Virus record (IMG/VR): IMGVR_UViG_3300010400_000003
Coordinates: 11,286 to 75,285 of that record
DNA: 64,000 bases
Source: a virus
Reading direction: 5' to 3' (one strand)
Part shown: one piece after another, positions 1 to 55,800 of the stretch
Layout of the letters: the number at the start of each line of letters is the position of its first letter
How positions within the stretch are numbered: the stretch's first letter is position 1
Notes under the pieces: model-generated
What the model was told of the DNA's origin: nothing
The model's database searches: none
Seen by the model: only the letters and a program-made list of their open reading frames with translations
Translations under genes and position numbers: made by a program

Positions 1-18
1 CTGAGCTTGGTGTTCGGA
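1..18 (+). other. attC site, right end only (L' CTGAG, 6-nt spacer, R' GTTCGGA)
   Basis: Same L'-6nt-GTT layout as the complete sites; its core is complementary to R'' at 253-262. Confidence 0.75.
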
Positions 19-323
19 GACTCGGCTTGCATGATGACTCGCGCAAAAGTGCGCAGGTTGAATTCCACCGTTTCTTGTGTCGTCCATAGGCGGTCATCAG
101 CAGCCCATTCTTTCACAGCCTTTTCCTGTGCAGCGTTTAGGACTATCGGGACTGCCCTGATTGAGCCGTCTGGCTGGAGTGCGATTGTAAGCGGTTCGCC
201 GCTCGCCAGCATTCGTTCCAGTTCTTCGATGGTAGGTCTTGGTCTTTCGACCGTCTCCGAACCAGTCGCTGGAGCGAATCCGGCGGGGCGCTTTGATTGT
301 TCAGAGTCAGTTTCCATATTCAT
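1..323 (-). CDS. Cassette-borne hypothetical protein, 3' end beyond window
   Basis: Translated by hand: MNMETDSEQSKRPAGFAPATGS...AESPNTKL, open to the edge; ATGA overlap with 320-688. Confidence 0.75.
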   Translation of the reverse strand, partial: MNMETDSEQSKRPAGFAPATGSETVERPRPTIEELERMLASGEPLTIALQPDGSIRAVPIVLNAAQEKAVKEWAADDRLWTTQETVEFNLRTFARVIMQAESPNTKL

Positions 324-368
324 GTCTTTCGTTGTTCGCCGCCGGATTCGCTCAGCTTATCGTTAGGT
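256..368 (+). other. attC site 1 (113 bp)
   Basis: R'' TCCGAAC, 6 nt, CTGGAGCGAATCCGGCGG ... CCGCCGGATTCGCTCAG, 6 nt, R' GTTAGGT; one unpaired G in the left arm. Confidence 0.88.
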
Positions 369-688
369 GCTTTCGGTGCAGGTATCTCTTTCCACCCTTC
401 TCCTGTCGGGCAGTCTTTCGTCTCGCAATACCAGCTTCCGCCACGACCGTTGCATTGAGGGCACGCAACCCAGTCGCCTGGGTCGTAGAAATTCGGGTCG
501 TCCTCGTAAGCGTCATAATATCCGTCCTCGCACCCCAGACCGCCACATTCGCCCCACTCCATTTCGCAGTGGCACACAGCGCATATCATCGCACCATCAG
601 ACCCACGATACATCGCACCTAACAAATCCTTGGAAGCAACAGCCGGGGGCTGGGACTGTTGCTGTGGCGTTTCAATTTTTGAGTCCAT
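320..688 (-). CDS. Cassette-borne Cys-rich zinc-finger protein (DnaJ-like CxxCxGxG)
   Basis: CAVC, CGGLGC, CPQCNGRGG, CETKDC. Confidence 0.8.
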   Translation of the reverse strand: MDSKIETPQQQSQPPAVASKDLLGAMYRGSDGAMICAVCHCEMEWGECGGLGCEDGYYDAYEDDPNFYDPGDWVACPQCNGRGGSWYCETKDCPTGEGWKEIPAPKAPNDKLSESGGEQRKT

Positions 689-724
689 AATTATTCGCGG
701 CTGTGCTTCAAGTCAGTGTTAGGT
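617..724 (+). other. attC site 2 (108 bp)
   Basis: R'' ACCTAAC, 6 nt, TTGGAAGCAACAGCCG ... CGGCTGTGCTTCAA, 6 nt, R' GTTAGGT; two unpaired bases (G, A) in the left arm. Confidence 0.88.
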
Positions 725-1029
725 GAGCCTAGCGGCAGCACTCCTTCTTCGGGGTATTCATCGAAGTAGGCGATGTGCTTGTGAGGCGGCACTTGGCATT
801 TCTGTTCTTCATCCCAGACGCCTTTCTTCGGCCATGCGGCGATTTTGATTTCCGTCTCGCGCTCCTCGACCTTTTCACTGGCGGTCGGCTCTTGGACTAC
901 CAGCCCGCAGAATTGTGCGAGGTCGCGGATTTCATCTATTGTGAGCGTCAGATGCGGCTCACCTAACCCGTCAGTGGAGCGCGACGTGGCGGGGCTTTCC
1001 GGCATAGTTGCTTGATCGGCGTCACTCAT
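691..1029 (-). CDS. Cassette-borne hypothetical protein
   Basis: 112 aa, tightly packed with neighbours; AGAAGGA upstream. Confidence 0.75.
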   Translation of the reverse strand: MSDADQATMPESPATSRSTDGLGEPHLTLTIDEIRDLAQFCGLVVQEPTASEKVEERETEIKIAAWPKKGVWDEEQKCQVPPHKHIAYFDEYPEEGVLPLGSPNTDLKHSRE

Positions 1030-1089
1030 TTTATTTCCTTCTGTGAGCCGCAGGCGTCAGCCGCCACGCCGCTCACTTTGGCGTTCGGC
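961..1089 (+). other. attC site 3 (129 bp)
   Basis: R'' ACCTAAC, 6 nt, GTGGAGCGCGACGTGGCGG ... CCGCCACGCCGCTCAC, 6 nt, R' GTTCGGC; unpaired bases in the left arm. Confidence 0.87.
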
Positions 1090-1355
1090 TCTGTCGTCTC
1101 CCAGAAGTCCATGTGGAAGATCAAGCCCGTTGACGTGCCTTTGGTGATTATTTTGACCATTGCTTTGTCGCGCTTTCCAAATCCGATGACGATGCCTTCG
1201 GAAGCTCCGGGATTTGCCCTGCCCCTGCCCTTGTTCATGCCTTGACTGATTGCCAAAGGCGTCACCTTTACACGCATCCCCCATTGGAATTTGTCACGAG
1301 CCGAACCATCCGATGCAGGCGACGTGGCGGGCGCTGGTAGTTTTAAGTCATTCAT
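1026..1355 (-). CDS. Cassette-borne hypothetical protein, possible SH3/KOW-like barrel
   Basis: FQWGMRVKV...EGIVIG pattern; ATGA overlap with next gene. Confidence 0.7.
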   Translation of the reverse strand: MNDLKLPAPATSPASDGSARDKFQWGMRVKVTPLAISQGMNKGRGRANPGASEGIVIGFGKRDKAMVKIITKGTSTGLIFHMDFWETTEPNAKVSGVAADACGSQKEIK

Positions 1356-1406
1356 AAATTCGGAGGCGCGGGTTAATCGGCCACGCGCCTGATCTGGTCG
1401 TTAAAA
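1300..1406 (+). other. attC site 4 (107 bp), terminal site of the array
   Basis: R'' GCCGAAC, 6 nt, ATGCAGGCGACGTGGC ... GCCACGCGCCTGAT, 6 nt, R' GTTAAAA; unpaired G and A in the left arm. Confidence 0.87.
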
Positions 1407-3073
1407 TTCAAATGCGATTCCGTCACCTTCACCAAACACGCCGCCGTGTCGTTCACCCCGACGGACACCATCCAGCCGTCGTCTTGCGCGACCGCGCCGT
1501 AGGGTATCACGACGTTTGGCTTCCAATGCGCAGCCCCGCTGCGCCACTCGTGGCCGCTCAGAATCGGATGGCTGGAAACGGCCAGCATCTCGAACGGCGG
1601 TTCGCTGTTCATCACGTACGCCCCCATGTAGTAACGCACGTCGCGCGGCTTGTCGCTGATTGGGATTTGACTATGGAAGAACCGCAGCCACTTCCCGCGA
1701 TACGGTATCGGAGGCGTGCCGCCGCGGATTTGTCCCCACGCCCAGGAAAGCGACGGCGTCCGCCATTCCTCATCTGGCTTGCCATCGCGGATCCTCACAA
1801 CGACATGCTCGGGCGAACAGGCGTAAATGAAATGCGTGCGGCCTTCCAGGTCGAAGAACACCCAATTCTTTTCGAGCGCACTGCCGTCGTTGTGGCCATA
1901 TTCAGGCCGGCAGAATTCCGCCAGTTCGGCGCCGCTGTCCGAGACTTTGATTTCTCCGTAGGCCATGACGCAGCGGAAACGATTGCCAGCCACGCCCGCC
2001 ACGACAAACGAGCCGAACAGGCGATCATCACGGGTCCACAGTCGCATGTCCTCGACGCTGGACGTGCTCAAATCGGACGGCATCCGCAGCGGCAAATGCC
2101 TGATGGCGGTCGCCGTTGCCGGGTCGAGTTGCACAATCGCCAGTTGCGTTTTCCACGAGCCGTGCGGGTGATGGCGGTAGGTGGACCACAGATTGCCGTT
2201 CCACTGAATGAGCGACGGGTTGTAGCCGTGCGCTTCCAGGCCCATGATGGGACGCTGCGACGGTCGCCGCACGCCGGACAATACCTGCCGGGCCATGTGC
2301 AAAATCTCCGGCTTGCGAGCGCTGTATTGCGAGTACCGGCAATGAAGCTCGAACCGCTTTTGCCAAGGCGTGCCGTTCCACGGCGTTGGCAGGTCGCGGC
2401 TCAACGCTATGACCGGCACTTTCGACGCCGCGCTCAAATGCAGCGGCAGGCTGTCGCCGGCAATCAGCAGTTCCGCGCGGTCCATCAATCGTATCAAGTC
2501 GTAAGGCTTTTCCGCTCTCACTTCAGATAAGTCGAGCGCGCGACACTTTGGCAACGCTTCCTGAACGGCCTGAATCAAATCGTCCTTTTCAGGGAAAGGC
2601 GATGCTACGCCGCTGAGAGCCACGAGGATTATTTGCAAATCCACGTTCAGATGCTTCTCCACTAGCGCAGCCTCGCGCAACACATCCCGCCGGTCAAACT
2701 CCAACGGCAACCGCCGCCAATCGTTTGGCCGTCCGAGGTTGGCCCAAATCTCGTGGACAAAGCTTTCCCCAACCGGCTTGCGCGTGCCGGCGGACTCGAC
2801 GGGATTCACCCAGCGAATCATTGAGCCGTTCGACTGCTCTTTGATCCATGACACCGCCCGATGCACTGTGTCGCCATCCTGGCCGCGCTTCCACGTCTCG
2901 GGGTAAACGATCGGGGTGACGTAGCTCACGCCGTCCAAGATGTCCTCGTAGTTCTGCGCGACGACGATGCTCGTCTTTTCGCCGGTCGCCCGAAAGCGGT
3001 CCAGCGCGAACGGCAGGACGATGCACAAATCCCCGTAACTGCCCAAGCAGACGATTTGCTCGCGGTTGCTCAT
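1373..3073 (-). CDS. GT9-like glycosyltransferase fused to a 5-bladed propeller glycosidase/phosphorylase-like domain
   Basis: N-terminal GSYGDL and LIAGDSLPLHLSAASKVPVIAL; C-terminal YNPSL, VEDMRL, EKNWVFF, RGGTP, SVGVND; start placed at ATG 3073 (ATGA overlap). Confidence 0.8.
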   Translation of the reverse strand: MSNREQIVCLGSYGDLCIVLPFALDRFRATGEKTSIVVAQNYEDILDGVSYVTPIVYPETWKRGQDGDTVHRAVSWIKEQSNGSMIRWVNPVESAGTRKPVGESFVHEIWANLGRPNDWRRLPLEFDRRDVLREAALVEKHLNVDLQIILVALSGVASPFPEKDDLIQAVQEALPKCRALDLSEVRAEKPYDLIRLMDRAELLIAGDSLPLHLSAASKVPVIALSRDLPTPWNGTPWQKRFELHCRYSQYSARKPEILHMARQVLSGVRRPSQRPIMGLEAHGYNPSLIQWNGNLWSTYRHHPHGSWKTQLAIVQLDPATATAIRHLPLRMPSDLSTSSVEDMRLWTRDDRLFGSFVVAGVAGNRFRCVMAYGEIKVSDSGAELAEFCRPEYGHNDGSALEKNWVFFDLEGRTHFIYACSPEHVVVRIRDGKPDEEWRTPSLSWAWGQIRGGTPPIPYRGKWLRFFHSQIPISDKPRDVRYYMGAYVMNSEPPFEMLAVSSHPILSGHEWRSGAAHWKPNVVIPYGAVAQDDGWMVSVGVNDTAACLVKVTESHLNFNDQIRRVAD

Positions 3074-3273
3074 TCCTTCACAAGTTTGATGCTCTCCGCG
3101 CTCACCCACGCTGCGCCATCGCCGTGGCTCGGGTGGATGCGAACCTCGTCCCGTCCGTAGCGTTGTTGCACGGCCTCGACAATCACAGGAATCGCAAGCG
3201 CGCCGTCGGATCGCAATTTGGGCCGCCAAATCGCTTTCCTCCAAACGTATTTTTCCAGTTCAGGCTTGGTCAT
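3070..3273 (-). CDS. Hypothetical protein
   Basis: ATGA-coupled on both sides. Confidence 0.7.
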   Translation of the reverse strand: MTKPELEKYVWRKAIWRPKLRSDGALAIPVIVEAVQQRYGRDEVRIHPSHGDGAAWVSAESIKLVKE

Positions 3274-3482
3274 GGAATCGTTTCAGGCTTTGGGTCCACC
3301 AGCGCGGCCCGCTTGCGGCGCACGTCGTTTCGCAATCCCTCGCAAACAATCCGCTCCGCAGCGTCCGCCACAGAGTTTCCGTAAAGCCCAAGCGTGACAA
3401 GCCTCGAAAGGTGTTCGTGAACGCTCTTGCTCGTGGTAATCGTGATGCGCACCGTGCTCTTTTTAGCGGCTGTTTGGCTCAT
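3270..3482 (-). CDS. Ribbon-helix-helix DNA-binding protein (CopG/MetJ/Arc type)
   Basis: Alternating strand VRITIT, helix, GLYGNSVADAA turn-helix; first gene after an operator-bearing promoter. Confidence 0.7.
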   Translation of the reverse strand: MSQTAAKKSTVRITITTSKSVHEHLSRLVTLGLYGNSVADAAERIVCEGLRNDVRRKRAALVDPKPETIP

Positions 3483-3497
3483 GGTTGTGCTCCGTTC

Positions 3498-3551
3498 GGT
3501 TCATGTTTGATCTCGCGCGCTCAGACTATGCCTGCGGTCGCAGGGTGTCAA
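3498..3551 (-). promoter_or_regulatory. Sigma70-type promoter with palindromic operator and conserved leader
   Basis: TTGACA-17-TAGTCT; operator CCTGCG-NN-CGCAGG at 3531-3544; leader AGATCAAACATGAACC. Confidence 0.75.
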
Positions 3552-3601
3552 CTGTAATCTCCCGCTGCGCGCCCCAATCGCTTGGAGCGCGGCGCGGAGG
3601 G

Positions 3602-3943
3602 TTACTTGCCAGCGGTGCCAATTCTCACGGCGACGTGATACGTGCCTGGATCGCCAAAGTCTCCCGTAGCACATTCCGATGTGCTTTTGTTTTCGTTGTC
3701 AATCCGTGCGTCGAGCATCCGGCCCTCGATTCGGTTGACGCCTTCCGTGCAATCGTCAGCCCGGAAGCGGGTGAAATGACACCAGTAGTCAGCGCCATCG
3801 CCTTCGGTGGCGCGCACGATTGTTACCTCCCCGCCGGGAAACCGCACGGAGACATGGGCAGGCTCGCAAGCTTTCGGGTTGCCGGTGATAATCAGCAAGG
3901 CGTGATCCGAGCCGTTGCTTTGCAATTCAAATCGGTTTTTCAT
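3602..3943 (-). CDS. Hypothetical protein
   Basis: 113-aa ORF with A-rich upstream leader. Confidence 0.7.
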   Translation of the reverse strand: MKNRFELQSNGSDHALLIITGNPKACEPAHVSVRFPGGEVTIVRATEGDGADYWCHFTRFRADDCTEGVNRIEGRMLDARIDNENKSTSECATGDFGDPGTYHVAVRIGTAGK

Positions 3944-4005
3944 AAATGTTTTGGGTTAAGAGGTAGGCGGGCGCGCACCACACGCGCCCGCCACCATCAA
4001 CCGCG

Positions 4006-5448
4006 TCAGGCACCGATCGCTTCTGCTTGCCTGTCGAGGAAGGCATCTTCCTGCGCTTGGGCGTAGGACGCCGTAGCGTCGGCCTTGCCGCAGTCACATT
4101 CCGCCGCGCCATGCAGCCGTTGCGCGCACGCTGGCCCGTGGCTTTCGTCCTCGGGGTTCGCCAGAACGCCCGCAATCAGGCAGGCCACGCTCCACGCACC
4201 TTCGGAGAATTTCTTGTACCAGACCTTGGACCGCATGGACCAGCGAAACCCGTTCGCCTTCAGCCGGTCAATGATTTCTCGCTCAGGCTTGGCTGGGAAG
4301 GAGACTTCGACGCCGCCCAATTCGAGGTTGCGGCGAACTGTGCCGGTCGTGCCCGCCTGGCCGTCCTGGCCGCCGTCAGCTTGCACGGCAGACCGCTCCG
4401 GCACTTCGAGGACCAGCTTGTACCAGTTCTCGGGCACATTCAGCCCGCCCTCGACTTCCTTGTTCCATACAACGCCCACAATCTTCGCGCCCGGCGGGAG
4501 TTCGGTCGCATCCATCACTTGCCGCGCGGCAGTCGTCGCGCCCATGTAAGAGCCGTTCTCGAAGCGCGGTAGCCGGCAGTTCCAAAGTTCTTCGGTCGCC
4601 GGGATTTCTTCGAGCGCCAGAATCCAGCGCGCAACGTCGTTTTGGATCTTCATGGTTTCGTGATTCTCGCCGTAACCGCGGGAAACTGACGTGTAGGTAA
4701 CACGGCCCAAGACGCGATCAACCGCCGTGCCGTAGTTGGAGCGATCGTACTCGTGCGAATCGGTCATGCCGTCAAAATGCCCGTCCTGATACTTGCCGAC
4801 AATCTCACGGACTTGCTTCTCGGTCGGCCCATTCAGCCACGATACGCGCATGGAGTTGTGATCTGAGCGCACGGAGAATCGCGCGTAAGGCCACTTTTGA
4901 ACCAGTTCGCTCTTGCAGTTCGCCGCAGCGCGCGGTCCGCCCCGCATGGCGTCCGCCGGAAGTGCCCACGGATACTTTGCCCGCAGTTCGGCCGCAATGC
5001 GGTCGGTTTCGATGCCGGCCAAACGCGACTTCTCGGCGCGATCCGCTTCAGCCTTCTGGCGTTCCGCCTGGTTCTCCGTGTCCTGTTCCGCCGTGATGCG
5101 GTTGTCAACGACGGGCATGTTGCGGCTCAGTTCGGGCAAAGCCGCCTCGATCTCGGTGCGGATTTGTGCCGCGTTAGCCTTGCTCACGGTCCAGTTGTAT
5201 TTTTCGCCAATCGCCTTTTGCACGGCGGCAACGTCCTCGCGGCGATGGACGCCAAACAGTTCATTGAAACAGGAAGTGTGCTCCTGGCCGCCGATGACAC
5301 CGGAGATTTCCTTCCGGTCGTTGTGCGCCATCCGCAGTTTGCCCAGCGCGCCGTTTACGGCGTTGACTTGAATCTTGCCCGGCGGGTTGGTCGTGTCGGC
5401 GGCCCACTTGCGCGGCGCCGTCGTGGTTGTGGTTTCGGTCGTGTTCAT
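4006..5448 (-). CDS. LPD29-domain (large polyvalent protein-associated) protein
   Basis: RFSVRSDHNSMRVSWLNGP...FDGMTD resembles LPD29; C-terminal FPAKP...LKANGFRWS...WY module; start placed at 5448. Confidence 0.75.
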   Translation of the reverse strand: MNTTETTTTTAPRKWAADTTNPPGKIQVNAVNGALGKLRMAHNDRKEISGVIGGQEHTSCFNELFGVHRREDVAAVQKAIGEKYNWTVSKANAAQIRTEIEAALPELSRNMPVVDNRITAEQDTENQAERQKAEADRAEKSRLAGIETDRIAAELRAKYPWALPADAMRGGPRAAANCKSELVQKWPYARFSVRSDHNSMRVSWLNGPTEKQVREIVGKYQDGHFDGMTDSHEYDRSNYGTAVDRVLGRVTYTSVSRGYGENHETMKIQNDVARWILALEEIPATEELWNCRLPRFENGSYMGATTAARQVMDATELPPGAKIVGVVWNKEVEGGLNVPENWYKLVLEVPERSAVQADGGQDGQAGTTGTVRRNLELGGVEVSFPAKPEREIIDRLKANGFRWSMRSKVWYKKFSEGAWSVACLIAGVLANPEDESHGPACAQRLHGAAECDCGKADATASYAQAQEDAFLDRQAEAIGA

Positions 5449-5530
5449 GTTTTTCCTTTGGTTGATGTTTGATGGTTTATGCGGTTGCCCGCGTCCGCTC
5501 CCCGCCGGCATGACGGGGAGCGTTGCGCGA

Positions 5531-5809
5531 TCAACTCTCAGTCCAGATGTACTCAATCGCGGAATGGCTAATGTAGTAACACGGTCGCCCGTCGTAATGG
5601 CTTTTGTGGAAACTCACGGCAAAGTCATCGGCCAAGTGTAAGCCTCGCTCGGCGCCCACGGCATAACTCATGTCGTGCGCCCACTGGTGAATGTCCCGGC
5701 AGTGTCGGCGCAGGGTCGCAAGCGTCACGTCTCGCGCAGCGTCCACCATCGCGTGGATTTTCGCCGCCGTGCTGTTCACGCAGCAAGTTGTGTAAGCGAA
5801 TCGTTTCAT
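5531..5809 (-). CDS. Hypothetical phage protein
   Basis: 92 aa, ATGA-coupled. Confidence 0.7.
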   Translation of the reverse strand: MKRFAYTTCCVNSTAAKIHAMVDAARDVTLATLRRHCRDIHQWAHDMSYAVGAERGLHLADDFAVSFHKSHYDGRPCYYISHSAIEYIWTES

Positions 5810-6378
5810 CGCCCAGCCTCCTCGTTGTCGTGGTCAATGATCTCGACTTCCACGCCCGGCGGGCAGGTCGTCACTTCGGCGCAGCCGCCCTGGACTTCGA
5901 CGATGACGCGCACAAGCGGGAGCATCGGATGGAGAGGCTTGCCCGCCACGAGTTGCCGCGCCGTGCTCTGAATGTGGCACAGCGCCCCGCACTCGGGACA
6001 CTCGCCCGCCGGCATCGGCTCGCCCGGGTCCACGCGCAAGAAGATGTCTTTGATCTCGGCCAACTCCAATTCGGAGCTAACCTTTCCGCAGTTCGGGCAC
6101 GGCTCGCACATAGCCGGCTCGTTGGGCAGAGTCGGGCGCAGCGGGCGAACGGCGTCAGCTTGGGGTGTGATGGTCGTCGGCTTGTGCTCCAGCGCGAACT
6201 TATCCGCCCGCGCCCGCGTTTCAACTTCCTCGTGCCTTGCTCCGATGAACGGCACCCAGCCGCCCGCGGTCTGGACGAGGAATTGACAGCCGGCATCCGC
6301 TTCGCCGTCGTATCCGCAGACGTAAGGCCCGCGAACCGTGCCCGGTGGGAATGGTTTGTATTCAGTTGTTTCTTTCAT
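5806..6378 (-). CDS. Hypothetical protein with zinc ribbon
   Basis: CPNCG...CPECG. Confidence 0.7.
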   Translation of the reverse strand: MKETTEYKPFPPGTVRGPYVCGYDGEADAGCQFLVQTAGGWVPFIGARHEEVETRARADKFALEHKPTTITPQADAVRPLRPTLPNEPAMCEPCPNCGKVSSELELAEIKDIFLRVDPGEPMPAGECPECGALCHIQSTARQLVAGKPLHPMLPLVRVIVEVQGGCAEVTTCPPGVEVEIIDHDNEEAGR

Positions 6379-9880: not shown

Positions 9881-10381
9881 TCAGGTAGCGATTCCAGCGC
9901 AGTCGTTTCTGGAAAAGCATCTGAGCCGGTTATTCTCCGGTTCGATCGGCCTGACGTTTGAGAAGTGAGCAGCCTTCAGAACTTGTGATTCAATGGTGAG
10001 ATCGAAGGAACCAAGCGGGGCGATGTGGTCGCACTCCCAAAGGTCGCCGTAGTTCTCCCACGACCAGCCCGGCTTGAACTGAGAGGCGATATGCCTGCGA
10101 AAGTCTGCTGGTGAGCAGGCGAGCACCTTTGAGTGACGTTTCGACTTTGGGTGGTAAACGATGGCGTTTCGAACTGCGGCGTAGATCCGGCGCATGTTGA
10201 TGTGGTGCCTCCGAGGCTTGCTAACCGCGGCGAGGTATTCGGCCTTGGTTTTCATCCCGAGCCGCAAGCGACGCGATGCGTTGATTTCCTCTCGGTGAGC
10301 GTCTTTGTGGGCGAGTATATTCGCCCGGTTAGCGGCGTAGTAGGCTTTGTTCCTGGCGCTTCGTTCCTCGATTGTTTCCAT
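9881..10381 (-). CDS. HNH/endonuclease VII-like free-standing endonuclease
   Basis: WSWENYG..WECDHIAP..FDL...HFSNVRP...N; paralogous to 36147-37118. Confidence 0.8.
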   Translation of the reverse strand: METIEERSARNKAYYAANRANILAHKDAHREEINASRRLRLGMKTKAEYLAAVSKPRRHHINMRRIYAAVRNAIVYHPKSKRHSKVLACSPADFRRHIASQFKPGWSWENYGDLWECDHIAPLGSFDLTIESQVLKAAHFSNVRPIEPENNRLRCFSRNDCAGIAT

Positions 10382-10436
10382 AGGCGTGATTCCAGCAGAA
10401 CCACGTGGAACTGTCAACGGTTTGTTTCCAGCGAAA

Positions 10437-10697
10437 CTACGTTTGTCCGCGCACGCCGGCGTCCTGTCCATGGCCGTCGGGTTGGCGGCGTGGCTCGACC
10501 TGCGAGTGCCCTCGGGATGTCAGCCAAGCCGGCCAAGTGGCCGGATCTTCCGGGCGGTAGGTCGCGGTGTAATCAGGCGGCGGTAGCGGGCAACCGAGCG
10601 GGCAGGGTTCGTGGACGGTGATGGTCGGGGCGAATCGGTCGGGGCGGGCGATCATGCCGGTACTCGAGCAGATGGGGCAGGGGCGTCTGGCGCTCAT
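10437..10697 (-). CDS. Hypothetical zinc-finger protein
   Basis: CPICSSTG...CPLGC. Confidence 0.55.
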   Translation of the reverse strand: MSARRPCPICSSTGMIARPDRFAPTITVHEPCPLGCPLPPPDYTATYRPEDPATWPAWLTSRGHSQVEPRRQPDGHGQDAGVRGQT

Positions 10698-10700
10698 GGG

Positions 10701-10961
10701 CTACTTGCTGAATTCCTTGTGCGGGTATGGGCAGCACTTTTGCGCCGGGCATTCGTCGCAATACCAGTCGCCTTTCTTCGTGAGGATGCAGCCCCAAGGC
10801 TTTGGCTTGCCCTTGCCATCACCCCACGACCAACGCACCGGAATCTTATCGGCGGCGAGAGTGCAGAGCTTTTGTAGTTCCTCTTGCTTTGGGGCGCGCT
10901 TGGCGGTCGCCACCGCCTCTTGCAGCGCGTCGTATTCAGATTCGGTCAGCAGGTATTGCAT
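10701..10961 (-). CDS. Cys-rich hypothetical protein
   Basis: Start MQYLLT; C-terminal YCDECP..CCPY. Confidence 0.7.
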   Translation of the reverse strand: MQYLLTESEYDALQEAVATAKRAPKQEELQKLCTLAADKIPVRWSWGDGKGKPKPWGCILTKKGDWYCDECPAQKCCPYPHKEFSK

Positions 10962-11253
10962 TGGTTTCTGGTTTCGATTTCTCGCGTTCAGCCATCTCCG
11001 CCAACCTCGCCTCCGCCTCGGCCGAGAACTCCGCCTGTTGCTGCGGCGTCTTGGCCAAGGTGGTGCCGCCGATGAAATCAGGCTGGACCTGTCCGGCGCT
11101 GTTGCTGGTCCAGAATTGAACTTGGACGCAGAAATTGGCGCCAAGCAGGATGGCCACACGCTCGCGCCAGTTGAGTTGGCGGAACCACTCGAAGGTGTAG
11201 CGGTGCTTGAGTTTGGGAGGGAGGGGAGTGCCGATCGGGAATTTTGGTTTCAT
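10936..11253 (-). CDS. Hypothetical protein
   Basis: 105-aa ORF in operon. Confidence 0.65.
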   Translation of the reverse strand: MKPKFPIGTPLPPKLKHRYTFEWFRQLNWRERVAILLGANFCVQVQFWTSNSAGQVQPDFIGGTTLAKTPQQQAEFSAEAEARLAEMAEREKSKPETNAIPADRI

Positions 11254-11301
11254 TGAGTGATTGAGGTTGCCGGCTTCCGCGCGCCGGCGGCGCTGGGTTC
11301 G

Positions 11302-11625
11302 CTATTCCTTGTTCTCAGGCTCGCCCACCGTTAGGCCGAGCGAGGTCGCCTTGGCGCCTTCGACGGTCAGTTTGATCGCGTCGGTGATGGTTTCGACGCC
11401 TTCACCGATGTCCGCGTCGGCCTCGACGACGAACATCGTTTCTCCCGGCGTGTCGCTGGAGACGAGTTCGGCGGACATCCCGTCGTCAGCCACTTCGACG
11501 GTGGAGTCGCCGCTGGAGACGGTCCATGTCGGCTTGCCGTCCAACTTGGCCGGCTTGCCCGCGCCGGTCTTGGGCGTGAGCGTAACTTTTACTTTTTGCT
11601 CGTTGGTTATTCGGATCTCTGTCAC
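11302..11625 (-). CDS. Acidic all-beta (Ig-like) protein
   Basis: GTG start after AAAGGA; PTWTVSSGDSTVEV beta-strand pattern. Confidence 0.65.
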   Translation of the reverse strand: MTEIRITNEQKVKVTLTPKTGAGKPAKLDGKPTWTVSSGDSTVEVADDGMSAELVSSDTPGETMFVVEADADIGEGVETITDAIKLTVEGAKATSLGLTVGEPENKE

Positions 11626-11778
11626 GGCTTGTTCCTTTCTTTGTTGTTCACCGGGCCGACGGTCCACTCGAAATGCGGCCGAGCGTTCCGGCATTTGCGT
11701 TTGTGCCAATGCCAACCGGCCAGCAGGCCGGCGGCAAAAGTGAGGATAGCGATGGCGGCATTCATTCAAAGAACTCCT

Positions 11779-12033
11779 TTATGGCTTTTGATTTGCGAGA
11801 CTGCGGATAATGGCAAAAGCGAACCGCTCGCGCTCCTGTCCCGAATTGGGCCCTGCAATGGAGTTAATCGCCGCCTGAAAGATTGCATCTCCCCTCAGAC
11901 GATGCCCATCTGGAAACAACAGCGACACATCATTGGGGTCTTTGCAGGCAACCGGAAGGTAGCCTTCGGACTTCAAGATGGCCAGATCCCCGCTGACGAT
12001 TGACCCGGCTTTGTAGAGGATGATCTGTTTCAT
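11779..12033 (-). CDS. Hypothetical protein
   Basis: MKQIILY start overlaps the rusA stop. Confidence 0.6.
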   Translation of the reverse strand: MKQIILYKAGSIVSGDLAILKSEGYLPVACKDPNDVSLLFPDGHRLRGDAIFQAAINSIAGPNSGQERERFAFAIIRSLANQKP

Positions 12034-12482
12034 GGCGCGAGTTCGTTGATGGTGATGTCCGCCCCACCTCCGATGAATCCGATGGAAAACCATTTGGATA
12101 CGTGAAGTTCGCAGATCTGCGCGTCATCTCGCCAGACCCCTAGTTGCGTCAGACAATCCATCACGGCCTTGGCGTAGTTGTCGGCATCGGGCTTCTTGGC
12201 GCACCAGTTAGGCGCTTCGGCGCGGATGCCTTTTTTGGTGAAGTGCGCCTTCGGCCTGGAGATGAATAACTTCAAATGCAGCGACACCGGACCTTCGTAG
12301 GGCGTGAATCCAGACGGCAGATGTTTGCGACACTCGGCGGCGATCAACCCCTTCCACCCATCGGCGGTCTTGGCGTCGTACACGCGGGCGCTCCACTTGT
12401 CGCCGAACTTGCGGGCGAACGCGCGCGGTCGGGGCTGGCCCTTGGGATCACCGCTGACGTAGAAGCTCAGGGTTGGTTTCAT
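12030..12482 (-). CDS. rusA: RusA-family Holliday junction resolvase
   Basis: PKGQPRPR, KPDADNYAKAVMDCL, DDAQI. Confidence 0.92.
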   Translation of the reverse strand: MKPTLSFYVSGDPKGQPRPRAFARKFGDKWSARVYDAKTADGWKGLIAAECRKHLPSGFTPYEGPVSLHLKLFISRPKAHFTKKGIRAEAPNWCAKKPDADNYAKAVMDCLTQLGVWRDDAQICELHVSKWFSIGFIGGGADITINELAP

Positions 12483-12688
12483 GGTTCCTCTCTCAAATGC
12501 TCAGGCAAATCCGATGCGGGATGCCACAGGTAGCGATCCATAAGGAATTCAAGGTTCGCCCGCAGCATTTTACTAGAGGTGGATTTGTCCAGTCCGCGGA
12601 CGCACGTTTTGATGACGGACAGGTCGGCGCTTACGCTGCGTCTGTGGTGTTTGCTCCTAGCGGGCAATGGTGACGGGTTCTCGATCAT
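12479..12688 (-). CDS. Hypothetical protein
   Basis: ATGA-coupled to rusA. Confidence 0.5.
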   Translation of the reverse strand: MIENPSPLPARSKHHRRSVSADLSVIKTCVRGLDKSTSSKMLRANLEFLMDRYLWHPASDLPEHLREEP

Positions 12689-14990: not shown

Positions 14991-15796
14991 ATCGCAACGC
15001 TCTTTCCCTTGCGGATTTCGTGTGGTTGAGTTTTTGGCTTGGGGGGAGACATCGGGCGACCGTCTGATTCCCACTTGGTTTTCACCCTGACCATCACCGA
15101 CCGAGCGTTGTGGATCGGCCTTTGGTTGTGATCCCTCCATCCGCAGCCCTCCATTTCGTGGAACCAGTCAACCGCCTTCCACTCAGCCAACCCGATCATT
15201 ACGGCGGTCGCCTTCACCTCGGAGAGAGACATGCGCGAAACGACTTCCGGGAACGCTCTCTCACTCCCAGCAGTACTTGGTTCTGGTTCTGGTTCTGGTT
15301 TGGTCAACGTAACGTTGGACGTAACGTTCGACGTTACGTTGTTTGTGTCCAAATCTTGGACGGTTTTACCGTGCTTTTGTGGATTACTAAGTTCTCGGCC
15401 CTTTTTTTCCACGCCAACGTCGTTACCGACGTTCAACGTAACGTTCCTCTTAACGAGCCTCGCGGCCGTGGCGGCGGATGTCTGGTTGTATCGGTCGGTG
15501 AGCCTTTCGAGGGATAGATTCCACTCCTTCCTGGCCCGCTTCTGATGCCATTTGCCTGATTCAAGAACGAAAAACTTGTCGTTGTCGAAGATCGTTCCCT
15601 TTGTTCTGGCCCAAGTCCCGAGTTCGCACCGGCACAGGTTTCGCATTTGCTCGTCGTCGTCTGGTATTCCCTCGCAATGCAGGTGGGACCAGTAGAACCA
15701 AACGCAGCGAAGATATTTGAAGCCGAGAACCTCTCCCATCATTTCAACGGCGGAGAAAAAGTCGTCGCCGTAGAATGGCATGTGGGAATCCGGCAT
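14987..15796 (-). CDS. DUF1376/YdaU-type replication initiator
   Basis: MPFYGDDF N-terminus, W..GIPDD, PEPEPEP linker, internal iterons, upstream of helicase. Confidence 0.8.
   Translation of the reverse strand: MPDSHMPFYGDDFFSAVEMMGEVLGFKYLRCVWFYWSHLHCEGIPDDDEQMRNLCRCELGTWARTKGTIFDNDKFFVLESGKWHQKRARKEWNLSLERLTDRYNQTSAATAARLVKRNVTLNVGNDVGVEKKGRELSNPQKHGKTVQDLDTNNVTSNVTSNVTLTKPEPEPEPSTAGSERAFPEVVSRMSLSEVKATAVMIGLAEWKAVDWFHEMEGCGWRDHNQRPIHNARSVMVRVKTKWESDGRPMSPPKPKTQPHEIRKGKSVAI
15279..15446. repeat. Iteron-like repeats, candidate replication origin
   Basis: Three tandem 12-bp units with near-palindromic RACGTWACGTT at 15306-15341, a fourth at 15435; GGTTCT tandem at 15279-15300. Confidence 0.7.
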
Positions 15797-20170: not shown

Positions 20171-20246
20171 TTTTTAACCGACCAAGAACCCGCTGTCAAA
20201 CATTTTTGCAAAATTTCTTGCAAAAGTTTTCGAGCGGGTTCATTGT
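20171..20246. promoter_or_regulatory. Divergent promoters in an imperfect inverted repeat at the strand switch
   Basis: Minus TTGACA-17-TAAAAA; plus TTGCAA-17-CATTGT; arms AACCCGCT...TTTTGCAA / TTGCAAAA...AGCGGGTT. Confidence 0.6.
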
Positions 20247-49876: not shown

Positions 49877-52800
49877 ATGGCGCAAGCGCCCACTGATGTC
49901 AGCGACCTCGGAGTAATCGAGAAACGAAGTCCACTCCCGGACTTTTCAGACCTCGGCGTGATCGAACCTGTGGCGCAAGGCGCACCGGATTTTTCCGACT
50001 TGGGGGAACTTGAGCCGCGCCGCATCGAACCTCCCGCCGATCTGAGCGGAGTCAAAGACGCCCGCGCTCCGATCTTCTTAGGCCGAGACTATCAGGTGGT
50101 CGAACCCTATCGCGACCCGAACGCGGCGCTGCGGGCAGATACCACCGGGCCGGTCGGTCGCACCCTGCGATTCATCGGCCAGAAGCTCGAACCGATCACG
50201 CCGAAGCGAACAGCCTTTCCGTTCCTGAACGCGGCGGACCTGGCGGCGGGAGATTTCCGTCACATGCTGGGCGACTACGACCCGGAGACAGGCGAAGTCA
50301 GCAACTCGCAGTTTCTACCAGACGCGCCCGCGCCGACGTGGGCCAAGGTTGCGACCGGGGCAGAACGCGGAGTTGCCCAAGTTGCCGGCGCGGCCATGCC
50401 GTGGGTGATTGCCGGCCCGCTAGTTGGCGGCGCCACTCGCCTCCCACTCGCCGCCCGCACGGTGTCAGCGGTGTTTGCCGCCGACATGATCCGGCAGTTG
50501 CCAGATCAGGTACAGGTGTTCCTGGATGCCGTGGACAAGGGTGACACGCAAACGGCGGTTCAGGCGGGCGTAGGCGGTTCAGCGGGCGCGCTTCTCGCCT
50601 CGCTCGCGCTTTACCATGCGGTAGCTCCGACCAAGGTTCCACGATTGGACGCGCTCGGGAATCCAATCATTGACCCCGCCACAGGAGAACCAGCATTTGA
50701 CACCCGAGGCATCGCGCAGGAGTCACCCGCCATCCGCGCTTTGCTGACGCGGAAGATTACCACCGAATACACGCCGGAACAGATCAAGGAGGTTTATTCG
50801 CGTGTGAACCTCGGTCAGGCGAATCCCGCCGAGCAGGAACTCGTGCGGTTCATCAACAGCGCGTTGGAGCGTCCGGGCGAGGCCGTGCGCAAAGGCGCGA
50901 CAGTCACGGAAGCGTTTCCGCGAATCGAAAATGAATTCTGGCGGAAATTTCTCGGTCTGAAAGAAGGCGAGCGCACGGTCACAATCGCGGGTGAGAAACC
51001 CGCACAACCCACAGGAGGCCCAAGTGCCGTTAATCCAGTCAGCGAGTCCGGCGGCGTTCAAAGCGAATCTGCACGAACTCTCCAAATCGGGAAAGAGAAC
51101 GAACAAACAAAACCTCGCGATCGCGTTCCGAGTCCAGCGGGGCAACCGCCCGAAAGGCCGAACGCTCCGGCTCAAGCCGCGCAAGCGCCTGTCAGCCTGA
51201 CGCGCGATGCGGCAATCAAGGAACTCAGACTTGAGGGCGTAACACAAGCCGATGCCGAAGCGTTGGTTGACGGAAAGAAAACCGTCAAGGATGTCGTCGA
51301 AGGCAATTTCAAAATCACGCCATCTCGCGTTGTCGGAGAGGAGCAGGGCCACGATGAAGCCTTTGTTGAGGGATACAACCAAGCGATCGAACGGCTTTCA
51401 AACATAGTTCGGAAATCCAAACCAGCCCTTCCCTCAAGTGCGACCAAGGAGACGCCTCCGGCGGCGGAACCAATAAAAACGACTCCGCCGCCGCCCGTCA
51501 AACCACCCGGGGACGCGATCGAATCCCGCTCGCCAGAGGATCAGGCCCGCAGTGCAGAAGCCGGGAAGGACATGGTTCGTCTTGGGCAGCTTGAAGGTTT
51601 GGAGTCAGCTGGGATGTTGACGACCTCGAAGCGATCCGAATTGGAAGCTTTGAGAGCAAAGATTAAGGCCGCACCCAAGCCAACTACTAATCCAGAACTA
51701 AAACCGGAAGAATTAGTTTCTGAGCCTGCCGCTCCCGAAGTGAAGCCCGCCGAACCGCCTGTAGTGGCCGGCGGTACTCCGCCGGTCGCTCCAACTCCAA
51801 CGGAAGAATCAATTCTCGCTCCACGTTCAGAGCAAATTCAGTCCGCACCAGCCGAACACGTAAGAGCTTTCGAGGAACTTCGGAACATCACGATTGACTT
51901 CAACAACAAAAAGCTATCTCGCAAGAAAAGAGATGCGCTGATACCGAGAGCGCAAGAACTTCGCAGCGAGCTTTCACGCGCCGGATACACTCCAGACCAA
52001 ATCAAAGATGTCGAAATGGGAAAGCGCGGTGTTCCACTCCCAGAATCCGCTCCCGCCGCTCCCGCGCAAGCTCCGGCGAAACCCGAACCACTCGACACGC
52101 TCGGCAATCCTGAATCATTCTACGCCACGAAGTCGCTCATGGGCGCGCAGATGCGGCGCAGTCCGAAGCTCGCGGCGGCGATGAAGTTCTACGGCGTCAA
52201 GACCGTGAAGGATTTGAACCGTCTGGCGACGCGGCGGTTTGCGGAGATGCGCGAGCGTGAGGCGGTTAAAGAAACCAGCGAATCGCACACGCAGGTTAAA
52301 CCGACTCCCCTTAACCAGAATGTGCAAACCGGCGAGAATCTTAACCAGCCATTCGTTGCGGAGATTCTCCAAGCCGTAGCCGCAGACCCGTATGCGCTGA
52401 CGAAGAACATCACGCGCAATCAGCAGGACGAAGGCTATACGGATCGCTTGCGCTTCAAGTCTGGTTCTCAGGAATACATCGCCTTGCTCCGACCCGAGAA
52501 GCGCAACACAGGTTCGCGGGCGATGTTCAATCATCCAGAGCAACTGGACGTGTTTCATTCGTCGGACACAGCGATGACTCGAAGGCTGGCGAGAATTGAT
52601 TTCTCAGAGATTAGCAAGCCGGCGATTGCAGAGGTCTTGCCGGCCCCGCCAGTTGTAAAGGAATCGCTTACAACTGCTGCTCCCGTAGCCGAACCAGAGC
52701 CGAAGCCAGCCGTTCCGAAACCGCAAGCGCCGCCTCCGCCGCCGAAGAAACCAACGGAAGCGCCGCCGGTCGCGCCGGTGGAGGAACGCAGTGAGACGCT

Positions 52801-55800
52801 CGCGGACAGGATGCGCGGTCAACGCTCCGCGACAATCGGAACGGTGACGAGCGATGCTGGAGTGTTCAGCATGTCGGTGCGGCCTGATAATTCTGCCGGA
52901 GGATTGTCAGTCGTGCTTTCCAACAAGGAAGGCTCGCAATCCATTCGGATGAATTACCGCTACGACATGACGCTGGCGGACCTGCGGAAATCCTTTCAGG
53001 AATACCTCAACATTGACAACCCAGGAAAGTTCACCGTTGAGATTTCCCAGCCGAAGCCTGCGCCGACAGAGGCGGCACCGCTAACGCTCAAACAGGAGTG
53101 GAAGCGCCAACTCAAAGAGAAGAAGTCCATCCGCTACAAGACGGCCACCGATGAAAAAGCCATTGAGCGATTGAAGGCCAAGATCGCCAACGATCCGTCG
53201 AAATGGTCGGCGGGCGACGGCGTTGGCTACCGCGTCAACTCCGGGCGCGGCACGCAGGTCAACCGCGGCTTCCGCATCGTGGACGCGGATCGTGATGCTG
53301 AGACGGTCACGGTGCGGCAAGTGGCCGACACGGGACTGACTTCGAGTGGCGGCAATTACGACACCATCCGCGACCAAGTGATTGACATGGTGGACTTGGT
53401 TCGGGACAACAAATACACGCTCCAGCCAAGTGCTGCGCCGGCCATTGCGCCAGCAGTGGAGGAAAAGTCTCGCGAGCAACTGATACGCGAAGAAATCGAA
53501 CGCGCCATTCCCGCGCTGGAGGATCAACTCGCCGACATCAAGCGACGACGCAAAGAGGTTCGCGCTCAGTTCAAAGGCCAGAAGCCAATCTCGACGTTTA
53601 ACCGCACGACGCCGCGCATTGCTCGCGGCCAGGAGTTCCAGCGTGCGCTCGACAATCTGGACATGGAGGAAAGCGGCGCGGCGAGAGGGCTTGAGCAATA
53701 CCGGAAGCGGCTTGCTGAAATCCAGACCGCAGAGAGTGCGGCAAAAGGATATTCGATAGGCGAGCCAATCATCGTCGAACGCAGTTATGGCGTTGATGCA
53801 ACTGTTCACAAATGGCCCGGCAATAAAGTGACCATCACAGCACGGCCAGATTTGGACGTTTCCGTTTACAAAGCAAAGTCAGGGTGGATCGTAAACGCCA
53901 ACGGAATATCGGTTGGAAAATCCCGCAAAGGCGTTGGCTCAATCGGATTCGATACTCCGCAAGAGGCCGTTGAGAACTATCTGGCAACTCTCAATAAAAC
54001 GCCCGAAGTAAAAGCCGCAACTTCCCCAAATGCGGATATGGCTGGCGGGGAATACGCCGTTGATTTTGAGTCGGCATCTGGCGACCGAATCAAATTGGTG
54101 GTTTCCTCTGAGAAATATGCCGACCTCTCGGATGAAGCGAAGGAGATGGTTGATCGGGCCTACAAAACGACGTTGGAATTCAACGAAAAAGATTTCATCA
54201 AGTGGGAAAAGATCAAGCAGGGAAAATCTAAAGTCACGGTCACTGAGCGCATTGAAGGCAGCGGTAAATCCAGGCAGAGCGTGACGCTGGACAGCCCCGA
54301 AGTGGAGTTTGGAAGTTGGGCGAAGCGCACGGACCTTCACGACGCAAAGTTCAATCCAAAAGGTGAGGCGTTGCGCGACAAGCTGTTCTCGGAACGCGAG
54401 GCGGAAGCAAAATCAAAGGCTGACAAAGAAGCCGCCGACCGCGCGGAATATGAGCGAAAGGCGAAAGAGTTCAGAGACTACTCTGAAACTGTTTCCCAAA
54501 CGCCCCTTCCCGCAGGAAAGAAAACAACTTTGGAAATTACCAGCAAGGAAGGCGTTAAGTCTCAACTCGAAGGCACTCGTTACGGAGACTGGTTCATTCA
54601 CAAGGTTGGACCAGTCGGTCACGGTCGCTACGCTGACCCAGTTGTTTACAAGGTGAGCCATGTTGCTTCGGGTTTGGGAGTTTCAGATAAGGGACTGCCA
54701 ACGCTTGAGAATGCAAAAAATTACGTTCGTGCTCTGATTCACGCGAACGTCAGGGCGGACTTTAAGCAAGCGTCCGATCTTTCCAAAGAAGAACACAAGG
54801 CGATTTCCGAAGTCGCGCGGGCTTGGGTTGGCGGCGGTGATGTGCCGTCGTATTTCAAACCCGCCCCGCCAACCACTCTGCCGCTCGAAGGCTGGGACAC
54901 CACCGGCCCCGGGGAAGATCAGGCCGACACGCGCTACGAGGACCTGCTGCGCTCGGGCACGGACGCCGCTACGATGCTGGACGCGATGGAGGCCAACGCG
55001 GAGAACGGGTTCGAGTACGCTCTGATTCAAAAGCTCAAGTCGCTCGGGTTGAAAACGACCGTCCGCATGGGCGCGGTCAACGAATCGCCAAGCCCGACCA
55101 CGACCGGCTACTACGGTTCCGACAAGGATGAAATTCTCGTGTTCGAGCGCGCGACGAACCGGCAGAAAGTCCTGCTCCATGAATTTGTCCACGCCGCGAC
55201 CGCGCAAGCCGTGGCCGACAGCCCGGCGTTCCGACTCGAACTCGAAGCCATGCTCCAAGAGGCCCGTGCGGCGATTGGCACATCCAGCTACGGCACGCGC
55301 AATGTGTATGAGTTTCTGGCCGAGGCGTTCAGCAATCCGGGCTTCCAAGAGCGGCTGGACAGCATCGGCGGCAAGCAAAGCCTCTGGCAACGCTTCCTCG
55401 CTTGGCTGCGGCGCATCTTCGGGATCAAGGACAAGGACGCCAGCCTGCTCGAACGGGTCATTCGCCGCAGCGCCGCCGAGTTCCGCGCGCCACGCAACAC
55501 GCTGGTCGCCAGCAATGCCGTCACGACGCTGCAACCCGGATTGGTTCGCATCGGCGGAGCAAAGCAATTCCCAGCCGTCACCGCCTACCACGGCACGCCG
55601 CATGAGGTGGACCAGTTCACGACCGCCAAGATCGGCACGGGCGAAGGCGCGCAAGTCTATGGATGGGGGCTTTACTTTGCGGAGAATCCAGAGGTGGGCC
55701 GCTATTACAAAAAAGGTTACGGCAACATGGAAGTGGACGGGAAATATATCGCTGTGCCTTTGTATGCTGATTTGGAGTCGGGCAAGGTCAAACCAACACC

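Follow-up and report, generated by a model that had tools for sequence, protein, structure and literature searches.

A complete integron with antisense cassette genes in the genome of a likely tailed phage

The stretch of DNA analysed here (the window; 64,000 nucleotides) comprises bases 11286–75285 of the 75,285 bp virus record IMGVR_UViG_3300010400_000003, such that a genome coordinate is the window coordinate plus 11285. The first 1406 bases of the window and the sequence to their left contain an integrase gene (intI), an attI site, and five gene cassettes, each ending in an attC site. Since IntI, attI, and five attC cassettes are found together, the element is a complete integron, and its geometry is the regular one. 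All five cassette genes are antisense to their attC sites, and each crosses two recombination sites in a fixed reading frame. The explanation that best accounts for the whole, and which is held to be very probable, is a complete phage integron with backward, frame-locked cassettes, in which exchange would keep the genes of an operon whole. The proposed layout, from left to right on the plus strand, is intI (leftward), attI, five cassettes that each end in an attC with its top strand on plus, and a resident phage gene. The parts of the integron are as follows.

Genome 10001–10951, minus strand: intI, an intact open reading frame (ORF) of 316 amino acids (aa), 334 bp to the left of the window
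Genome 10987: predicted crossover GTT of attI, 298 bp to the left of window base 1 and 36 bp from the intI start codon
Genome 10988–11297: cassette 0, to the left of the window and ending with attC site Z; 10 nt complement of its own R''
Genome 11214–11303 (window −71 to 18), plus strand: attC site Z, with its right arm (L', spacer, and R' GTTCGGA) at window 1–18; model score 45.2 bits, E 1.7e-8
Window 13–362, 350 bp: cassette 1, the start of which, GTTCGGAGAC, is a 10 nt complement of its own R''
Window 256–368, 113 bp, plus strand: attC site A, the left arm of which has an extra G; full-length match of 43.2 bits, E 5e-8
Window 363–718, 356 bp: cassette 2; 9 nt complement of its own R''
Window 617–724, 108 bp, plus strand: attC site B, with two extra left-arm bases; 38.7 bits, E 6e-7
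Window 719–1083, 365 bp: cassette 3; 12 nt complement of its own R''
Window 961–1089, 129 bp, plus strand: attC site C, with three extra left-arm bases; 23.7 bits, E 2.3e-3
Window 1084–1400, 317 bp: cassette 4; 9 nt complement of its own R''
Window 1300–1406, 107 bp, plus strand: attC site D, the last; 27.7 bits, E 2.5e-4

The integron and its attC sites

When folded, each site consists of a 7 nt box ending in AAC, 5 unpaired nt, a long stem, a loop of about 40–60 nt, the return stem, a further 5 unpaired nt, and GTT followed by 4 nt. There are one to three extra bases per full site and these are in the left arm every time. The sites are thus attC hairpins with an unpaired spacer and with extrahelical bases on the AAC arm, and the five of them follow one another head to tail in less than 1.5 kb. 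An original prediction, made from the letters of the window, had described four full attC sites of 107–129 bp and one that is truncated; the folds and the model bear this out, the truncated site being the right arm of site Z. At the distal end of the array, the R' of site D (GTTAAAA) forms the junction to the resident phage gene.

The cassette limits that had been given (13–362, 363–718, 719–1083, and 1084–1400) are exact when computed by script. It had also been claimed that each cassette starts with a perfect 9–12 nt complement of its own R'', matching it better than does the R' of the same site, and this holds for the four cassettes concerned (10, 9, 12, and 9 nt against 3, 8, 3, and 3 nt). 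Over cassettes 0–4, the script gives own-R'' matches of 10, 10, 9, 12, and 9 nt and same-site R''/R' matches of 5, 3, 8, 3, and 3 nt. The boundary footprint of integron cassettes, a cassette start that is a better complement to its own R'' than is the R' of that site, is therefore present.

The covariance model used to find attC was built from 21 sites in Verrucomicrobiota metagenome-assembled genomes (MAGs) only, with no phage sites, aligned in the orientation away from intI. The training arrays were found in these MAGs beside the 5' ends of the nearest prokaryote IntI genes. In the training alignment 90% of cells agree with the proposed pairing, compensatory changes are present in 10 of the 12 L-stem pairs, and L-stem covariation is far above that of the shuffled and slid controls. 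Across the whole 75,285 bp genome, on both strands, exactly five sites are matched at E<0.1, all at full length and all on plus, and the next best match in the genome has E 0.26. A search with an attC covariance model had been proposed as a check on the original prediction; with this bacterial-trained model all five sites are matched, so that the refutation that a lack of matches would have offered fails.

Such a model was needed because folding energy did not separate the sites. Ranked by folding energy alone, AAC...GTT hairpins at the five sites are not set apart from those of the rest of this 59% G+C genome, and an arm-only fold places them 1st, 3rd, 6th, 21st, and 22nd among 1932 AAC...GTT candidates in the genome. 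The five phage sites by themselves gave a MAFFT alignment that was too poor for modelling. An Rfam scan of window 1–6000 gave nothing relevant, and Rfam appears to be without an attC family. Between the primase/helicase gene and the gene that follows it, there is a cluster of ACGTAACGTT-type palindromic repeats (window 15306–15443). These score highly in hairpin scans, and are not attC-like by the covariance model.

In attC, extrahelical bases mark the top strand, where they are on the AAC arm (Nivina 2016, PMC5027507), and here the bulges are on the AAC arm of the plus strand. Three observations, namely the bulge position, the placement of attI and intI, and the strand on which the model matches lie, together confirm plus as the predicted attC top strand and minus as the predicted recombinogenic bottom strand, in agreement with the earlier claim that the unpaired bases are always in the left arm and place attC on plus. 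Reverse polarity, on which the symmetric own-R'' footprint gives no information by itself, is ruled out by the same three observations.

The original prediction had suggested that the cassettes are served by a host IntI or by an integrase encoded outside the window, and that the sequence to the left of base 1 should be inspected. Indeed, an intact intI is present there, as are attI and cassette 0. The protein matches the NCBIfam 'integron integrase' profile TIGR02249 with 275.5 bits (curated cut-off 265) over profile positions 2–313 of 315, and residues 11–306 align to the Vibrio cholerae VchIntIA structure 2A3V with E 2.5e-45. This alignment takes in the IntI-specific insertion ...LAKKYPEYRFAWPWAWLFP... 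and the catalytic R, K, HxxR, H, and Y motifs, which identifies an integron integrase that includes the IntI-specific segment. The genome encodes no other tyrosine recombinase. Directly downstream of intI, at genome 9381–10124 on the minus strand (window −1904 to −1161), there is a gene with a phage DNA methyltransferase family match (phrog_2675, E 1.6e-14), and the local order on this strand is a glycosyltransferase-like gene, the five cassettes, intI, and the methyltransferase-like gene.

The putative attI adjoins intI and would have its crossover at G/TT (the slash marks the crossover). Its core, GTTCGACAA, is a 10 nt complement of the R'' of the first cassette and has a single upstream occurrence, at genome 10987. 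The motif GCTTAATCAnTG/TT, also seen as GCTTAATCAnTGTT, is common to the viral relatives and on the minus strand reads N-x-D-stop; here it provides an in-frame stop, AAC ATT GAT TAA. Inside attI, at genome 10958–10985 on the minus strand and just upstream of the intI start, TTGATT and TATATT are separated by 16 nt, a σ70-like candidate for the integrase promoter (P_int), of a kind that the scan finds at chance frequency. A scan for σ70 promoters and terminators gave matches at chance level.

The intI gene is on minus and all attC sites are on plus, on the 5' side of intI, which is the arrangement of a regular integron. The same opposite-strand geometry of intI and attC is seen in all of the viral and bacterial relatives examined. 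The element is not a CALIN, an attC cluster without integrase, as intI adjoins the array, nor is it an inverted-integrase integron, as intI and attC are on opposite strands.

Antisense genes and their reading frame

The cassettes are filled by five ORFs of 88–122 aa on the minus strand, which have positive codon scores, where the long ORFs of the plus strand score negatively. In the case of cassette 1, the gene scores +9.3 against −15.6 for the plus strand ORF. The placing of all four ORFs then visible on the minus strand in the original prediction is thus upheld, and two of them have homologues. The positive codon scores and the database homologues of two of the genes indicate that these minus strand ORFs are real genes. 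Those within or reaching into the window, together with the gene at the distal end of the array, are listed here.

Genome 11252–11608 (window 1–323 in part), minus strand: cassette-1 gene, 118 aa; start in the loop of site A, stop in the loop of site Z
Window 320–688, minus strand: cassette-2 gene, 122 aa, cysteine-rich and zinc-ribbon-like; start in the loop of site B, stop in the loop of site A
Window 691–1029, minus strand: cassette-3 gene, 112 aa; start in the loop of site C, stop in the loop of site B
Window 1026–1355, minus strand: cassette-4 gene, 109 aa; start in the loop of site D; codon score +10.6
Window 1373–3244, minus strand: resident phage gene, up to 623 aa, with weak glycosyltransferase-9 / GH130-like matches

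Every cassette gene has its start codon in the loop of the attC that belongs to it, continues through the L''/R'' arm, and reads the AAC core as Asn; the cassette-2 gene, for example, reads P-N across the core at window 362–364. The stop is in the loop of the left-neighbour attC, or in attI, and is beside or overlaps the next start, with ATGA overlaps at window 320–323 (cassette-1 and cassette-2 genes) and 1026–1029 (cassette-3 and cassette-4 genes). The distances from crossover to stop are 7, 40, 25, 55, and 25 nt, all of which are 1 modulo 3, and the frame lock is seen at five out of five sites and also at attI. The canonical cassette has a promoterless gene on the attC top strand, expressed from Pc; this is usual rather than defining, and none of the five cassettes here is of that kind.

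At the distal end, site D supplies the last nine codons (N-D-Q-I-R-R-V-A-D) and the stop of the resident gene. The similarity of this gene to its nearest viral homologue stops at residue 615, which is the crossover Asn.

Among the cassette proteins, that of cassette 2 has 12 database homologues (57–77% identity), that of cassette 3 has 38 (41–93%), and that of cassette 4 has one (53%). The cassette-2 family is conserved to ...APKAPN, after which the tails are unrelated in sequence and differ in length. In the cassette-3 family, 26 of the 29 aligned proteins have ...PLGSPN at the end of the conserved part, followed by divergent, unrelated tails. The conservation up to the crossover Asn, with unrelated tails beyond it, would mean that the cassettes recombined in that Asn codon beside different neighbours, and it is direct evidence, at the level of sequence, that cassettes of two families have recombined at this point. 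An N-terminal stretch that derives from the L''/R'' arm (such as P-A-V-A-S-x-D-L-L-G) recurs in both of these unrelated families because the attC DNA is shared. Homologues of the cassette-2 protein in the viral contigs L094, L096, L097, and L100 are likewise in attC arrays and antisense, and their neighbours differ from those found here.

It might be supposed that these are RNA hairpins at gene junctions, acting as processing sites, terminators, or coupling structures, and that they are merely attC-like. Their loops do contain the stops and starts, so that a role at the RNA level may well exist too, and folding energy alone does not set them apart in this G+C-rich genome. However, the IntI gene and a conserved attI adjoin them, a model of bacterial attC matches these sites only, the own-R'' boundary signature is present, and the protein tails switch exactly at AAC. 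This alternative deserves next to no credence.

With regard to function, AlphaFold models the cassette-3 protein with disordered ends and a predicted local distance difference test (pLDDT) value of 63. Two cassette-3 homologues from other metagenomes, P0021 and P0025, have an N-terminal Lar-like restriction-alleviation domain joined to a cassette-3-type domain; the Lar-like part is matched by PF14354 (precomputed for P0021) and by phrog_599, with E 1.7e-10 for P0021 and 3.6e-6 for P0025. Each fusion may have arisen in a place where the loop has no stop, so that two adjacent cassettes are read as one. The Lar-like fusions, and the methyltransferase-like gene after intI, are weak hints that the cargo could be made up of host-takeover or counter-defence genes.

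Relatives of the array and the phage that carries it

There are 11 contigs in IMG/VR with related IntIs, 38–73% identical, and their arrays have no cassette and no flanking gene in common with this phage; contigs with IntIs that are 56–73% identical share zero cassettes. In the viral loci, 70 sites are matched by the model trained on bacterial attC, and these sites are on the strand opposite to intI, or to the zinc-finger gene, in every locus that carries either. Cassettes were counted between consecutive model matches and assigned to a strand by a simple codon score, with the following result.

Viral contigs, 56 cassettes: 50 antisense, 35 frame-locked, 32 with the start in their own attC
Verrucomicrobiota MAG arrays, 22 cassettes: 6 antisense, 5 frame-locked, 6 with the start in their own attC

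The remainder are sense, being 6 of the 56 viral cassettes and 16 of the 22 MAG cassettes. Three of the 6 antisense MAG cassettes are on a single 7.8 kb contig, L028, which carries a cassette-3 homologue and is probably a contig of viral type. When L028 is left out, the ratio of antisense to sense is 50:6 in the viral set and 3:15 in the MAG set (Fisher P 1.8e-8). With this genome excluded, a long antisense frame crosses 55 viral sites, and AAC is in frame in 38 of these (binomial P 6.5e-8); 37 of the 38 in-frame sites have a stop inside the same attC.

The nearest prokaryote IntIs are those of Verrucomicrobiota MAGs (55–72% identity). In the IntI tree, this phage (G000), five viral contigs, and one short MAG contig form a clade with support of 100/99, which is nested among the Verrucomicrobiota IntIs beside a chromosomal Limisphaerales clade that has sense cassettes. 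The Limisphaerales MAG loci L018, L020, L022, and L029 have near-identical 99 bp attC sites (GCCTAAC...GTTAGGC) and sense genes. Such uniformity is typical of sedentary chromosomal integrons, and these loci are likely to point to the host group.

Two other complete viral genomes have antisense arrays. The first, G007, is a phage of 45,898 bp with a 100 bp terminal repeat (CheckV 100%), a related IntI, and an antisense array, which encodes TerL, portal, and tail proteins, and a separate phage integrase. The second, G002 (IMGVR_UViG_3300025703_000004, locus L096), is complete at 44,650 bp with terminal repeats and at least nine model-called attC sites. Its cassette genes are antisense and frame-locked, with no IntI anywhere in the record, making it a CALIN. 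In the same soil metagenome as the present phage there is also an 11,154 bp contig which, compared with positions 10118–12609 of the present locus (L002), has a diverged intI, a site-D-like attC arm, and a different stretch of 1,433 bp replacing the array. This was considered as a variant of the present array and rejected, since a diverged intI with a different array is a separate, related integron with other cargo.

The record itself is classed as having direct terminal repeats by IMG/VR, with a CheckV completeness of 100% and a repeat of 123 bp at the genome ends. It encodes the large terminase subunit TerL (phrog_2, E 3.3e-16), and there are genes for a virion structural protein, a tail-fibre protein, and a primase/helicase. 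The genes form two long blocks, on minus to about 31 kb and on plus beyond. The integron is about 11 kb inside the record, within the minus block, and its cassette genes are oriented with that block. Its carrier is likely to be a tailed phage, with hosts likely to be Verrucomicrobiota.

A contig from an independent Logan assembly of a soil metagenome, which is probably the source of the record, covers genome 9500–12800 with zero differences and at even depth, and this argues against a chimeric join. That an assembly error joined a fragment of a bacterial integron to a phage contig has to be considered, given that the genome derives from a soil metagenome and that the run includes another contig, with a diverged intI. 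The integron is, however, internal, 10 kb from the record start, with the same leftward block on both flanks, and the last nine codons and stop of the resident gene come from attC D. Moreover, the array has the antisense layout of the viral loci, whereas the bacterial relatives are sense. With the Logan contig added to these, a chimera is scarcely believable.

Two features elsewhere in the genome may be noted. At window 20187–20238, where the leftward and rightward blocks diverge, there is a near-perfect 50 nt A+T-rich hairpin that may be regulatory or origin-related. The late block is closed by an ORF of 3,415 aa (window 49877–60124, plus strand), in which residues 1903–1953 have a weak match, below the Pfam cut-off, to ART-PolyVal (ADP-ribosyltransferase of polyvalent proteins), and which gave no other family signal.

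Proposed working of the array and comparison with known integrons

The cassette genes are on the strand of intI and of the phage gene block, and must therefore be read in the leftward phage operon and not from the Pc of the integron. Transcription from upstream phage promoters would pass through the cassettes into intI, so that IntI would be made during infection. Expression of the cassettes, presumed to hold accessory genes, would then be by read-through and coupling. The mRNA would carry the bottom-strand hairpins, each with a stop/start junction in its loop, and a ribosome finishing one gene could open the stem and free the next start, giving translational coupling. Each predicted cassette protein would begin with an N-terminal linker encoded by the L''/R'' arm. 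Its functional domain would be followed by the Asn of the core AAC, and the frame would close with a tail of 2–19 residues and a stop, both borrowed from the neighbouring attC or attI.

IntI is expected to excise and insert cassettes at the G/TT cores, and may be active during infection, with cassettes recombining in the phage today. The fixed codon phase and the in-frame stop at every site would mean that any excision, insertion, or reshuffling regenerates complete, coupled small genes, and each new cassette order should yield complete genes that differ only in the short borrowed tail. As the genes are antisense, the recombinogenic bottom strand would be the non-template strand, and it may be speculated that transcription favours folding of its hairpins.

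The integron could instead be genuine but sedentary, a fossil built earlier in a phage ancestor or in a host and no longer recombining, with cassette genes that are ordinary early genes of the phage. There are no junction variants in one soil metagenome run, which would agree with this, and the same-site R''/R' pairing is poor in four of the five sites; poor pairing is expected in any array, so that present-day activity is not readable from sequence. Set against a fossil are an intI that is intact, of full length, and above the curated cut-off, an attI that is conserved among relatives, and loop stops and starts that are all maintained. The lack of any shared cassette among contigs with IntIs 56–73% identical indicates turnover. 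A fossil integron is accordingly regarded as unlikely.

It could also be proposed that IntI and attC are a device for lysogeny, integrating the whole phage at the attC of a host chromosomal integron, with the shuffling of cassettes as a by-product. IntI is the sole tyrosine recombinase in this genome, the phage attC sites are similar enough to chromosomal attC of Verrucomicrobiota to be matched by a model trained on the latter, and an attC-flanked Vibrio prophage has been described (Qi 2023, PMC9892861). For such a purpose, though, one site would suffice, and not five cassettes with maintained, frame-locked genes, and G007 has a phage-type integrase besides its IntI. No prophage copy of the present phage is on hand from this analysis, in which no search aimed at one was made. 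This would make a device for lysogeny very unlikely.

Several points weigh against the preferred explanation, that of a phage integron with backward cassettes and operon-preserving exchange. The covariance model is not that of IntegronFinder, the census rests on a simple rule for cassettes and strand, and the attC sites within an array are related, so that site counts are not fully independent. The frame lock, although strong, is not absolute in the relatives (38/55). The cassette proteins have no match in Pfam, NCBIfam, or PHROG. Searches with the glycosyltransferase-like gene and with TerL gave no long relative of the phage, and with it no differently ordered sister array, and no excision or circle joints were seen in the contigs of one public soil metagenome run, which is the only run listed as containing the genome; no RNA run is listed for it.

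Beyond the integron of this one phage, a wider claim can be made, that there is a phage-owned lineage and style of integron. In such integrons the cassettes would be read backwards, with coding attC arms, stops and starts in the loops, a stop built into attI, and a fixed phase. Shuffling would be safe for translation, exchange would be aided by transcription, and the cargo would be a counterpart to the defence cassettes of bacterial integrons, in the form of rapidly exchangeable genes for host takeover or counter-defence. Taken jointly, these features are put forward with belief tipping only slightly in their favour.

Integrons are usually viewed as bacterial, with promoterless cassettes read from one promoter and in one orientation that is enforced by the selectivity for the bottom strand. 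The present array would suggest that phages can own a full gene-capture system, and not merely fragments of host integrons. It would also suggest that the mechanism does not dictate how cassettes are oriented with respect to attC and that an entire pool of them can be inverted, a point of relevance to the unsolved origin of cassettes and of their attC sites. Sites of the attC type can, it appears, be protein-coding and phase-locked. Arrays of this kind may point to a pool of small phage genes with rapid turnover, which are candidates for a role in counter-defence.

The presence of integron parts in phages is already published, and this element is filed as an integron of regular geometry. In a survey of 10,705 phage genomes by Qi, Rajabal, Ghaly, Tetu and Gillings (2023, PMC9892861), the part of the paper that was available reports 3 complete integrons and one cassette-less integrase, all in temperate phages. 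The integrons are a fragment of a host Vibrio chromosomal integron, a class 1 mosaic, and a Shewanella prophage integron. The same part of the paper gives 17 integrase-less arrays in phages, attC sites of virulent phages that are recombinable by IntI1, and the Vibrio prophage flanked by attC sites. The phages of that survey likewise contain integron components, and in its available text there is no account of an IntI clade linked to phages, of cargo that is systematically antisense, or of crossovers in a fixed codon phase. A literature search found no paper on a phage-linked IntI clade, whole antisense arrays, coding attC arms, or codon-phased crossover.

The closest known systems are the chromosomal integrons of Verrucomicrobiota (Limisphaerales and Pedosphaerales MAGs), which belong to the same IntI radiation (55–72% identity). 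Both have intI divergent from the attC top strand with attI beside the intI start, both have attC sites with a 7 bp R box, a 5 nt unpaired spacer, and, on the AAC arm, two bulges of one base each with about 6 bp between them, and both have the same cassette boundary signature. In the bacterial arrays, however, the genes are on the attC top strand and do not extend beyond their cassettes, and no antisense frame is open, whereas in the phage array every gene is antisense, passes through both neighbouring sites, is frame-locked, and is read towards intI.

Large chromosomal integrons do contain some reverse-oriented cassettes, such as those of toxin-antitoxin genes, which are antisense to the direction of the array. 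Some integron cassettes carry their own promoters (review PMC8876359). Reverse-oriented chromosomal cassettes are a minority, are self-promoted, and are contained within their boundaries, whereas those of the phage array are all antisense, have no sign of promoters of their own, overlap both attC sites, and appear to be coupled. The two published integron geometries concern the position of intI relative to attC. Inverted-integrase integrons, of the Treponema type, resemble the phage array in having intI and the cassette genes on one strand, but in the Treponema type intI is on the attC strand and upstream of the genes, while in the phage it is opposite to attC and downstream of the genes.

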